DNA from: a virus
Direction: 5' to 3' (one strand)
Length of the DNA stretch: 20,187 nt
IMG/VR virus record: IMGVR_UViG_3300014348_000112
Location: 80,820-101,006 of that record
Numbering within the stretch: position 1 is the stretch's first letter; each line of letters opens with the position of its first letter. Position numbers and translations under genes: made by a program. Below, piece after piece: positions 1 through 2,700 of this stretch. Below the pieces are notes generated by a model. The model saw nothing but the letters and a program-made list of their open reading frames with translations. It did not search any database and was not told where the DNA came from.

Positions 1-2684
1 GAAACCCGCACCTGGTGGGGGGATTTCCAGCCTAGGTCAATGGGTTCGCCTATTGCGTTCCAAATTCGGTCGTTGTACTCCCAGTCTATCTCTCTCAGGC
101 CATTCTTTTGGGTAAAGACCTTGTAGTCGAAACTCTCCAGAACCACCTCGCCCGTGGCTCCCTTAACCAAAGTAAAGCGCGCGCTGCCGGGATAGAAGTC
201 CGGGTTGAAGTCCGGCATCTCAGGGTCGGTCCACGTCACCATAATGTCAACGGTCGTTCTGGGGAACTGACCCTCGCGGGTGATCTCTCGCTCAGTGATG
301 GCCATGCTGACGTTGGTCGTAAGCCCCGGCCGGCTCATCAGACGCATGAAGGTGTCGGCGTCGGTGAACTCATCCAGCCGCGCGGGCGCGCCGGCGATCT
401 GCGGCTGCCCACCCTCTGGTCGCCACTGCCCGCCGCGCTCGTCGCCGGCCGGCCAACGAGGCTGCGAGGGGTCGTAAGTTTTTTCGATGCCGAACAGCTC
501 AGCAAAGCGCCGGCGGTCGTCCTCTCTGGCGCCGCTGCCCACAACCCTGGGGCGGTAGCCCTGTTGAGCTGCGGCGGTGATCTGGTAGGGGCCGAAGACC
601 CGTACCATCATCCCGTCGTCGCGCTCCATCAGGCTGGTCTCTTCAGCTTTTAGCCCGCGCCCGCCCAGGTCCCGGAACTTACGGTTGACCTGCTGGATGT
701 CATTGCTGGCGCGCGCCGTAACCTTTTCGTGGGCCTCCTCCAGGTTCAGTTGCCAGGCGTTCTGCTCGGCGACCAACTGGTTGCGCAACTTGTTGACTTG
801 GCGGGTGTCCATCCACTGGTCGTCACGGTAGCCCAGCGCCTGCCAGAGGTGCTCAGAGCCGTAGGTGGCAATCTTGCCGTCGGCGTGCTCCACGAAATAG
901 ACGTGAACGATCTTGCGTCCACAGGTGGCGCACTTGCCGGCGTTGTCCCAGTCGCTGACCTGTTTGCTGTAGTAGCCCTCGTGTTCGTTGTAGGCCAGGT
1001 CCTCGACCGTCTTGTGTTCGTAGGCGACCAGTTTGCTGCCGTTGGGGCCGGTAAAGGGCCGGTTCGACCGCATGTAGAGCTTGGCGTTGCGCGGCATCAC
1101 CGTGCCGCCGCCGTCCTCGGACCACTGACCGCCCTCTGGCTGCCCCGCCGGCACGCGCGGCTGGTCGGGGTTAAACTTCTTCTCTCCCATCGCGAACACG
1201 CGCCGGCTGGACCACAGCGTCACCACGTCGCCAGCGCCGTTGATGGCCACGAAGTCCTCGCCGGGTTCCAGCCGGGCGCGCCGGGCCTTCTCCGCCACGG
1301 CCTGGTCAACGGCCGGCGGGGTGGCCTGCTCGGCGGCCGGCGGGGTGGCCTGCTCAGCCGGCGGCGGCTCCTCGCGCTCGACCACCTCCGGCGCCTCTTC
1401 GTCGGTGTTGGCGTTGCCGTGGACGGTGGTCATGTTGGTCTCGGCCAGCCACTCCGGCGCCATCTCCAGCTCGACCAGCCAGCGCCGGGCCTCGTCGGGC
1501 GAAATGAGCTGCCCGCCGGCCAGGGTGGCGATGTTGGCGATGACCTTCTCCCGGATCGTCTCGCGCAGCAGGTCGTCTTCCGAGTCCTTCTGGTCGAAGA
1601 CGAACTCCAGCCCCTCCGGCAGGATGTCCCAGTTGACCATGCGCTCGACGCTGGACAGCGCGCGCCCAAAGCCCTTGCCCTTGGCCTTCTGGGCCTGCAC
1701 CTCGGCCTCGGCCTTGGTGGCGCCGGTCTGCGAGGCCGGCCAGAACTCCCGCACATCCACGCCAAAGTCGAGGGCCAGCGTGTAGACGTACAGCTCGATG
1801 GTGGTCTTCTTGTCGAAGCCCTCCGGCAGGCTGGAGAAGCTGGTCAGGTTGACGCCAATGGGGTTGATGGGTGACGACTGCGCCGCCAGCCACAGCACCC
1901 CCTTGAACGTCGTCTGCTGCTTGTCCTCTCGGTGGGCTTTGTACAGCTCAAAGGCCGACCTGACCTCGCTCTGCGTCATGCCGGTGATGGCGGCGATGCC
2001 GGGCAGCGGCATGTCGGACAGGCGCTCCTCTTCGTAGTTGTACAGCGCCATCAGCACCTGGGCGACCTTCAGCGCGCGGCTGGTGGCGCAGAAGCCCAGG
2101 CCGGCCTTGCTCTCGTCCGGCGTCGGCATGTCCACGATGCGGGTGTAGTCGCTCGGCTCCAGAGGGATGCGCTTGCCGCTAACCGCGCCGGTGATCAGGC
2201 GGGGATAGTAGGCCGCCGGCGTCTTGGGCGACGCGAGCAGTTGCATCGTGCCGGCATCCAGGTTGTAGACGCCCAGCACTGGCCCATTCTTGCCGTGCCG
2301 GCCCAGTTCGACAAAGCCGCCCTGGTCGGCCTGCCAGTAGTCCTGGAGCAGGCGGTCGAGGAAGAAGCTCCAGCCGGCGCCGGCGTCAGCCTCGGCCAGT
2401 ATCTCCTGGTAGCGGGTGACGCGGTTGCGGCCGCCGGTGATTTGCCAGTCCAGCGAGACGGCCTTGCTGGTCATGCTGGACAGCGCGCCCACCAGGATCG
2501 GCTCCTGGCGGGCAAACTCGCGCAGCTTGTCCACCCGGCTCGGATTGCCCCATTCTGGTATCGTGTTCTCGGACGTGAAGCGGTCGAAGAAGGTCCACAA
2601 ATACGCAGACGCGTCGGTCATCTGCCTGGCGTCGAAGCGGGGTTGTACCGAGAGTTTGCCGTTGGTGGCGGTCGTGGTTGGCAT
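1..2684 (-). CDS. Phage portal protein (HK97-like) with long C-terminal extension; 3' end outside window (>=894 aa)
   Basis: Manual translation from ATG at 2684 (MPTTTATNGKLSVQPRF...) stays open to base 1. The first ~430 aa show portal-like segments (GLGFCATSRAL...LYNYEEE...PGI; TLALDFGVDVREFW; VERMVNWDILPEGLEFVF; GQLISPDEARRWL), followed by a Pro/Glu linker and extra domains. Confidence 0.8.
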   Translation of the reverse strand, partial: MPTTTATNGKLSVQPRFDARQMTDASAYLWTFFDRFTSENTIPEWGNPSRVDKLREFARQEPILVGALSSMTSKAVSLDWQITGGRNRVTRYQEILAEADAGAGWSFFLDRLLQDYWQADQGGFVELGRHGKNGPVLGVYNLDAGTMQLLASPKTPAAYYPRLITGAVSGKRIPLEPSDYTRIVDMPTPDESKAGLGFCATSRALKVAQVLMALYNYEEERLSDMPLPGIAAITGMTQSEVRSAFELYKAHREDKQQTTFKGVLWLAAQSSPINPIGVNLTSFSSLPEGFDKKTTIELYVYTLALDFGVDVREFWPASQTGATKAEAEVQAQKAKGKGFGRALSSVERMVNWDILPEGLEFVFDQKDSEDDLLRETIREKVIANIATLAGGQLISPDEARRWLVELEMAPEWLAETNMTTVHGNANTDEEAPEVVEREEPPPAEQATPPAAEQATPPAVDQAVAEKARRARLEPGEDFVAINGAGDVVTLWSSRRVFAMGEKKFNPDQPRVPAGQPEGGQWSEDGGGTVMPRNAKLYMRSNRPFTGPNGSKLVAYEHKTVEDLAYNEHEGYYSKQVSDWDNAGKCATCGRKIVHVYFVEHADGKIATYGSEHLWQALGYRDDQWMDTRQVNKLRNQLVAEQNAWQLNLEEAHEKVTARASNDIQQVNRKFRDLGGRGLKAEETSLMERDDGMMVRVFGPYQITAAAQQGYRPRVVGSGAREDDRRRFAELFGIEKTYDPSQPRWPAGDERGGQWRPEGGQPQIAGAPARLDEFTDADTFMRLMSRPGLTTNVSMAITEREITREGQFPRTTVDIMVTWTDPEMPDFNPDFYPGSARFTLVKGATGEVVLESFDYKVFTQKNGLREIDWEYNDRIWNAIGEPIDLGWKSPHQVRV
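1310..1355 (-). repeat. 24-bp-period tandem repeat encoding EQATPPA(A/V) linker in portal
   Basis: cggccggcggggtggcctgctc at 1310-1331 and 1334-1355. Confidence 0.85.
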
Positions 2685-2700
2685 GGCCGGCCCGAATACG

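Follow-up and report, generated by a model that had tools for sequence, protein, structure and literature searches.

A phage portal with four cargo cassettes, each opened by a conserved peptide that may serve head loading and release

Why does a phage portal protein run on into a chain of unrelated domains, and what is the role of the peptide that recurs in front of each? The question is raised by a 20,187-nt stretch of the IMG/VR virus record IMGVR_UViG_3300014348_000112 (positions 80,820 to 101,006), here called the window, in which a minus-strand open reading frame (ORF) encodes the protein P0002. An earlier note, made from the sequence alone, read this ORF as a portal that continues into a series of unrelated cargo domains, with a repeated motif in front of each. 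The description held: P0002 is a normal portal followed by four cargo cassettes, each opened by a copy of a 21-residue motif that in this phage reads x-E-K-[FY]-[ND]-P-x-Q-P-R-x-P-x-G-x3-G-G-Q-W. The ORF is open for 894 residues inside the window and reaches 1,639 residues on the complete contig (C111), where the extension suggested in the note brought in two further motif copies. The two copies within the window lie where the note had placed them (Table 1).

The first 500 residues of P0002 are confirmed as a phage portal by the fold of their predicted structure. An AlphaFold2 (AF2) model built from a 32-sequence alignment (pLDDT 75) was compared by Foldseek with the Protein Data Bank (PDB), and all of its top 50 matches were portals of phages, gene transfer agents (GTAs) or archaeal viruses, including those of phage 812, the Rhodobacter GTA, HK97, G20c, T5 and T4 (E 5e-12 to 1e-6, probability 1.00). 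Neither Pfam nor PHROGs gave a match above threshold for the whole ORF or any of its domains, which places the protein outside their curated portal families; a profile of the 32 portal homologues had no match among PDB sequences, and a search of IMG/VR with the portal found no relatives. By sequence, P0002 is thus a divergent portal lineage. Its gene also sits where a portal gene is expected, with a MuF gene, a Neck1/gp10-like gene, a gp21-type protease-scaffold gene and a gene for a conserved protein of ~470 residues downstream on the same strand, an order conserved in six related loci. Pfam detected no MuF domain in the portal-cargo ORF itself.

The point of fusion is precise. The portal core ends with the conserved segment ...LWSSRRVFAMG, and the first motif copy adjoins its last conserved residues (...RRVFAMG) directly. 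The EQATPPA linker mentioned in the note is present as a tandem AEQATPP repeat, disordered in the model (low pLDDT), between the portal body and a C-terminal hairpin. The portal homologues (n=102; 242-770 residues) are mostly plain portals of 480-530 residues, which share the ending ...GEDxVxINxxGDxxTLWSSRRVFAV followed by a tail of ~40 residues (NWP...PFG...YP) and a stop. Since the motif directly follows ...RRVFAMG, the cargo chain replaces this portal tail. In plain portals P0005-P0066 this conserved tail reads NWP(x)REV...PFGxLTTEYP, with YP often the last two residues.

The earlier note had allowed that the extension might be an invariant structural part of the portal, or a product of faulty assembly. 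Neither is the case, as about 100 related portals are unfused and free of the motif, close relatives carry other cassettes, and the same junction occurs in three separate assemblies and in one wastewater contig. The fused relative P0003 (1,698 residues) is 83% identical in its portal part and has five clear motif copies, and P0004 (903 residues, 73% identical) has one; their loci hold 11 and 5 copies, respectively, including a variant in their protease-scaffold proteins. Cassette 1 of P0002 is 69% identical to residues 1028-1331 of P0003, where it is the fourth cassette, and the other cassettes of P0003 differ. The wastewater contig (15 kb, from another study) covers window 1144-2700 with 68 substitutions and lacks exactly 21 nt, one AEQATPP unit, at window 1336, so linker length varies between strains. 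Between motif copies 1 and 2 it carries 478 different bases in place of the 649 found here. Read from this alignment, the fusion is real DNA, and cassettes are shown to be exchanged at the motif copies. In these comparisons, contigs identical to the window (X1) may stem from the source sample, and parts of the window left uncovered by a contig carry no meaning.

Such exchange could suggest that the motif is chiefly a recombination handle, its coding DNA supplying homology for swaps and its peptide being a tolerated flexible linker. The clean replacement between copies 1 and 2 and the altered rank of the shared cassette in P0003 would both follow from this, as would the orientation of the copies, which lie on one strand here and in each of 116 IMG/VR loci (116/116), and their resemblance as DNA within the genome (73-92% identity). 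At the invariant residues, however, the copies use differing synonymous codons, with three Gly codons and four Pro codons at fixed positions, so that selection acts on the motif peptide itself. The peptide is moreover kept across the many lineages described below, where DNA homology could not persist, and a pure linker would not hold R, P, G, GG and two aromatic residues in fixed register. Recombination as the principal function therefore appears improbable.

Within this phage the motif is not confined to the portal fusion. A motif profile run over six frames of the 3.9-Mb metagenome-assembled genome that holds C111 found 12 canonical copies (51-60 bits) and 2 variants (26-30 bits), all 14 on the minus strand of C111; the next best match in the assembly scored 11 bits, and the repeats are not due to chance. 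The genome-wide scan proposed in the note thus located the motif four times in the portal ORF, in the MuF protein of the neighbouring gene (following the MuF domain, in keeping with the note's statement that similar motifs occur in MuF-type head proteins), in the protease-scaffold protein and near the N-terminus of seven further genes, all in the minus-strand head-gene module. In these seven genes the motif lies 10-90 residues into the protein and is preceded by a short hydrophobic leader, for example MTTLRVVKVSVAEKK.... The variant form, (W/F)DES..RHPxGDPRGGQF, occurs in a 726-residue and a 277-residue protein. One solo cargo gene (C111 93896..93192) ends in ...ARRPTVRLVVK and a stop; this terminal peptide matches the leader (RRPVVRLVVEK) before the gene's own N-terminal motif, and the C-terminus looks like the stump of a lost downstream cassette.

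A search of 1.84 billion cluster representatives with the motif profile indicates how far the element has spread. The number of motif proteins is 4,357 at E<=1e-3, falls to 287 at E<=1e-10 and is still 26 at E<=1e-30; they reach lengths of 4,009 residues, and a single protein can hold as many as 11 copies. The general motif is K-[FYW]-[DN]-P-x-[QH]-P-R-x-P-x-G-x3-G-G-[QER]-[WF]. Across 485 copies from 148 proteins (in which Arg is invariant through the selection of copies), P-R-x-P-x-G is kept in 90-97%, the last residue is Trp in 63% and Phe in 36%, and GG is present in every copy that fits the fuller pattern. Copies are separated by a median of 237 residues. The first lies no more than 120 residues from the start in 95 of the 148 proteins, and a domain follows the last copy in 144 of them; of 160 ORFs from the IMG/VR loci, all but 4 extend for at least 60 residues past their final copy. 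Because a domain nearly always follows the motif and the first copy comes early, the motif belongs to the downstream domain. The unit is therefore 'motif + domain', and the motif is an N-terminal boundary element used by many phage lineages.

What precedes and what follows the motif both vary. Among 53 N-terminal anchors longer than 120 residues were matches to Portal_Mu (8), MuF (7), Phage_portal_3 (4), Phage_portal (1) and the P23-45 portal barrel (1), so that by domain assignment the anchors span at least three portal families in addition to MuF. In 150 sampled inter-motif cassettes the recognizable domains included ART-PolyVal (11), ADPrib_exo_Tox (7), GNAT (6), Acb1 (4) and DUF3626 (3), together with PARP, zeta toxin, topoisomerase IB, glutamine deamidase and 2H. 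By cluster look-up, each of the ten top-ranking motif proteins is a metagenomic sequence. When motif regions were compared by tblastn with 50,697 GenBank phage records, nothing matched, with the reservation that low-complexity filtering may have hidden the motif. Two metagenomic motif-bearing Portal_Mu fusions resemble cultured phages of Rhizobium and Roseobacter, but solely across the portal part, and the 50 kb scanned of Rhizobium phage RHph_TM3_3_9 contain no motif. These searches thus yielded no cultured carrier.

For the cassettes of P0002 itself, all enzymatic assignments made here lie below curated hidden Markov model (HMM) thresholds. Cassette 1 contains the stretch CATCGRKIVHVYFVEH...GSEH (residues 585-612), present as the note described it and regarded there as a possible Zn site. 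Its sole Pfam match, DUF5830, is below threshold (E 3.7e-4), and in the protein atlas it resembles phage hypotheticals only (score 0.80), which is uninformative. Cassette 2 consists of an N-domain, a domain resembling ADP-ribosyltransferases (ARTs) and an NANWL peptide. Over 450 residues, the stretch 734-1169 shares ~30% identity with two solo genes of this phage that bear the motif near their N-terminus. The C-terminal half of cassette 2 and the two solo genes make up three paralogues, in all of which LYRG, PLSS[FW]S and E-x-E are invariant. These elements correspond in sequence to the R-S-E signature of ARTs, marking the domain as ART-like; HMM support is below threshold (DRAT, E 0.16), and an ART profile had no match among PDB sequences. 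Cassette 3 is a helix of only ~50 residues. Cassette 4 resembles PI3_PI4_kinase clusters in the protein atlas (score 0.95), with weak, sub-threshold matches to Pfam and to PI4K2 structures, and is a putative PI3/PI4-kinase-like domain. One polypeptide thus joins a portal, a CxxC/His segment, an ART-like domain and a PI3/PI4-kinase-like domain, in line with the two or more unrelated activities that mark a polyvalent protein.

The C-terminus of solved portals points into the head. If the portal of this phage is built alike, twelve portal-tethered chains of ~1,140 residues would lie inside the head, and the motif may be a combined addressing and release signal for head-internal proteins. It would attach effectors to proteins that enter the procapsid (portal, MuF and protease-scaffold) or stand at the head of free-standing genes of the head module, and would keep the cargo within the assembling procapsid. 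It would further mark the place where the phage's own T4-gp21-type prohead protease cuts, freeing the twelve tethered chains as separate enzymes able to leave with the DNA, and its coding DNA would supply the homology for cassette exchange. This reading of P0002 as a portal-cargo polyprotein, with the motif as addressing signal, release signal and recombination boundary in one, is given a probability of roughly 45%. The head-module context and the portal fusion speak for packaging in the virion and early injection, and we infer packaging of the cargo, its cleavage at the position discussed next and its injection.

Since the chains must be cut in order to act in the host, a gp21-type protease is the obvious candidate. 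The note had proposed a prohead-protease cleavage or packaging tag, and the phage does encode such a protease in the protein P0257, whose gene lies upstream of the capsid gene. P0257 comprises a ChaB-like N-terminus, the motif variant, a protease domain (residues 350-525) and an acidic coiled-coil scaffold tail. The AF2 model of the protease domain (pLDDT 82) matched T4 gp21 (5jbl) in VIA with Z 12.2 and a root-mean-square deviation of 2.5 A over 132 residues, followed by herpesvirus proteases (Z 7-8.6), and its His and Ser are invariant across 57 homologues. On the evidence of this model the domain is a T4-gp21-type prohead protease of the gp21/assemblin fold; a protease profile found no match among PDB sequences. 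A predicted complex of the protease domain with the motif peptide scored 0.23 (mark 0.32), which carries no weight for or against. In some P0257 homologues (P0288, P0298, P0294) a DNA ligase or 2H phosphoesterase stands at the N-terminus instead, which makes this end of the scaffold a third site where cargo is anchored.

In T4, phiKZ, 201phi2-1 and SPN3US, proteases of the gp21 type recognize x-x-E, cleave behind the Glu and take off N-terminal targeting propeptides (PMC5694885). A cut in the present lineage would most likely fall after the Glu just before the motif, between x-x-E and K. The note's clue of an 'EK' preceding the motif is weaker than it seemed, being specific to this lineage. 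Of the 14 copies in this phage, 12 have x-x-E and then K at this place, and Glu is found in 19 of 28 copies of the clade; it is missing at the portal-adjoining copy in both nearest relatives, and in other lineages its frequency is 7%. There, the residues before the motif are conserved within a protein and differ between proteins (AAA/AAG before WDES..HPR; V-x before K), a pattern that, as sequence, fits the site of a resident protease abutting a universal tag.

Several observations weigh against this reading and against a pure cleavage site. The conservation before the motif could also reflect duplication, shared descent or gene conversion. The 7% for Glu at the pre-Lys position was counted across 485 copies, and within the clade 9 of 28 copies lack it, with both nearest relatives reading GAK at the copy next to the portal. 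A motif of 21 residues with invariant R, G and GG far exceeds gp21-type sites of 3 residues and must therefore do more than mark a cut. It also heads solo genes, where there is nothing for it to be cut from, and the six-frame profile found no copy in the major capsid protein. Finally, four loci with unfused portals (59-68% identity) have zero motif copies; in these, cargo is carried on MuF proteins of 1,086-1,585 residues, joined through Pro/Lys-rich linkers. Both the protease (42-55% identity) and the capsid protein (57-75%) of these motif-free relatives are orthologous; the motif is hence not required by the protease.

Some of these observations would be accommodated if the motif is an uncleaved loading peptide that binds the procapsid interior, be it the inner face of the capsid, the scaffold or the portal crown, in the manner of encapsulin cargo-loading peptides or of the C-terminus of the P22 scaffold. 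Several copies would then staple the chains to the shell, with release by another route or none. Its presence on solo genes and its length and conservation would be as expected, and so would a multivalent arrangement of up to 11 copies per protein. The protease-scaffold of the same clade also gained a copy when the cargo did: the motif is found in 4 of 58 protease-scaffold homologues, all four from the clade with tagged cargo, which counts in favour of the composite reading as well. A portal-tethered chain, however, cannot leave the head uncut, and the binding partner would have to be conserved across unrelated portal families and very divergent capsids, yet the close relatives with a 57-75% identical capsid protein do without the motif. 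An uncleaved loading peptide is thus rather unlikely, if a substantial contender.

Alternatively, the motif may act in the infected cell, where a co-injected peptidase or a host protease would cut it or a host factor recruited by it would refold or place each injected domain. Zincin-like metallopeptidases have been predicted to process polyvalent proteins (PMC5512222), and the MuF protein of this phage joins the motif to a C-terminal domain (residues 347-634) whose HELGHH sequence has the appearance of a zincin-type metallopeptidase site. Among 151 motif proteins, 37 contain HExxH, against a chance estimate of ~6, and the motif is Pro-rich, with the core [YF]xPxQPRxP. Two JAMM-like proteins are further candidates, possibly metallopeptidases or RadC-like cargo to judge from a signature that in the 277-residue paralogue is HNHPQYDSSLSPAD (HxHx7Sx2D), the same protein bearing the motif variant; neither Pfam nor PHROGs matched the 291- or 277-residue protein. 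The MuF domain, however, is not recognized by Pfam, its sole match is phrog_33618, and homology to it is limited to locus L012, with no counterpart in the 148 top motif proteins. For this restricted distribution it was demoted to a minor rival as the motif-processing enzyme, and no host partner can be named. The chance that the motif works in the infected cell is considered slight.

Extending the release reading beyond this phage is more tentative. The motif would then be a portable head-loading and release signal across lineages, bringing any domain behind it into the procapsid, whether free or attached to portal, MuF or scaffold, and cut at its N-terminal edge by whichever maturation protease is resident, with the cargo injected; such generality is possible though doubtful. 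Other explanations were set aside, a homotypic "sticker" interaction among them. AT-hook-like DNA binding does not suit a motif that is not basic and that in 23% of copies has an acidic residue beside the invariant Arg, and neither self-cleavage at Asp-Pro nor 2A-like skipping was supported.

The last 55 bases of C111 repeat its first 55, hence the contig is a circular assembly of a phage genome of ~101 kb. Its phage genes include the portal, MuF, a Neck1-like protein and the prohead protease-scaffold, and its G+C content is 64%, compared with 60% in the remaining bin; it was concluded to be a complete phage genome binned together with a bacterium. Where the circle closes (bases 1-839 and 100086-101061), the junction is spanned by two minus-strand frames that overlap each other, one of 279 residues, open from base 839 to the contig start, and one bearing the motif, from base 303 across the junction to 100086. 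Within the virion module, C111 5415..653 and 98360..97155 encode family 1 and 2 glycosyltransferases, in a 911-residue multi-domain protein and a 316-residue protein, together with a S-adenosylmethionine (SAM) methyltransferase and a DegT-type aminotransferase. This suggests sugar modification of virion proteins or DNA. The positions of the main features are collected in Table 1.

Table 1. Positions of the portal-cargo ORF, its parts and associated genes (C111, contig coordinates)
Feature	Residues	Location	Strand	Remarks
Window		C111 21225-41411		C111 101,061 bp, within a 3.9-Mb metagenome-assembled genome
Portal-cargo ORF (P0002)		start window 2684, runs past base 1; ends C111 base 18989	minus	
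Portal core	1-500	window 1185..2684	minus	AF2 model and Foldseek
Tandem AEQATPP x2	443-458	window 1311..1358	minus	read from sequence
Motif copy 1	501-521	window 1122-1184	minus	EKKFNPDQPRVPAGQPEGGQW; 53 bits; fusion point
Cassette 1	522-733	window 486..1121	minus	CxxC...H...H segment, then helical region
Motif copy 2	734-754	window 423-485	minus	EKTYDPSQPRWPAGDERGGQW; 53 bits
Cassette 2, start	755-894	window 1..422	minus	continues outside window to ~residue 1229
Motif copies 3 and 4	1230-1250, 1305-1325	outside window	minus	
Cassette 4	1326-1639	outside window, to C111 base 18989	minus	DRHxxN and IDNG signatures
Protease-scaffold (P0257)	726 in total	C111 13492..11312 (L009:6316-8493)	minus	~10 kb downstream of portal ORF
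MuF protein	634 in total	C111 16228..14324	minus	Pfam PF04233; MuF domain, motif, HELGHH domain
JAMM/MPN-like paralogues	291 and 277 in total	C111 18978..18103 and 97170..96337		JAMM/MPN-like signature

Proteins injected by phages, such as anti-restriction factors, anti-CBASS enzymes like Acb1 and host-reprogramming ARTs, are hard to recognize from sequence. A conserved peptide that opens each module would offer a direct handle on them. The 4,357 clusters include known anti-defence and toxin families along with many unknown domains, and what phages exchange when this arsenal moves between portal, MuF, scaffold and solo genes is the unit 'motif + domain'. If the motif proves to be a sorting and cleavage signal across lineages, scanning for it alone would list the injected effectors and anti-defence proteins that uncultured phages and GTA-like particles carry in their thousands, and foreign proteins could be loaded into phage heads by means of the tag.

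By its combination of domains, P0002 belongs to the polyvalent proteins, with the portal as its anchor. Fusions that join effectors to portal or MuF domains have been noted in this class (Iyer et al. 2017, PMC5512222), which likewise combine several unrelated effector domains in one polypeptide (ART, GNAT, 2H, kinases, peptidases), are encoded among the head genes of portal-terminase phages and are predicted to be packaged and injected. The cassettes behind the motif include the ART-PolyVal family of that study. Its text, unlike the present case, has no recurring inter-domain motif, whereas here a 21-residue element opens each cassette. It also proposes zincin metallopeptidases, whereas the only protease verified by fold here is the gp21-type prohead protease.

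In MuF polymorphic toxins of temperate phages (PMC3482391; PMC5576092), a head-associated N-terminal anchor is joined to a variable C-terminal toxin or enzyme, which relatives exchange. In the texts of Zhang et al. 2012 (PMC3482391) and Jamet et al. 2017 (PMC5576092), the MuF route is described with no mention of a demarcating motif. The gene next to P0002 follows the same layout of MuF, motif and C-terminal domain. P0002 differs in having the portal as its anchor and a chain of four cassettes as opposed to a single toxin.

Short elements with partly similar roles exist elsewhere. The cargo-loading peptide of encapsulins is a short conserved sequence that directs cargo into an HK97-fold shell, which it binds uncleaved. 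The phage motif is likewise a short conserved peptide on cargo, with a proposed role in loading. In polymorphic toxins, PT-VENN (CdiA), PT-TG and the Rhs DPxGL region are short elements directly N-terminal to a hypervariable C-terminal module. Such pre-toxin motifs form a recombination boundary and, in some families, a processing site. Unlike the phage motif, they belong to proteins delivered by type V or type VI secretion systems, have different sequences and occur once per toxin, with no chain. The concept of a pre-toxin demarcation motif is found in work on polymorphic toxins (PMC3482391). A full-text literature search for GGQW returned nothing relevant; portal and MuF effector fusions are already known, and the widespread motif-delimited cassette architecture is, as far as found, undescribed.

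A functional parallel is offered by the capsid targeting sequence (CTS) that T4 uses for IPI-III and Alt, its internal proteins, and by propeptides in phages of the phiKZ and SPN3US types (PMC5694885), all of them short N-terminal signals that bring non-structural proteins into the prohead core. T4-type signals are removed after Glu by a gp21-type protease; the present phage has a gp21-fold protease, and x-x-E before most of its motif copies. The T4 signals are 10-20 residues long, poorly conserved and lineage-specific, in contrast to a motif that is conserved across lineages with different portal families. Unlike the CTS, the motif is also found repeatedly within chains and adjoins the C-terminus of the portal in a fusion. 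If it does act as a sorting and cleavage signal in these lineages, it would constitute a general counterpart of the T4 capsid targeting sequence.

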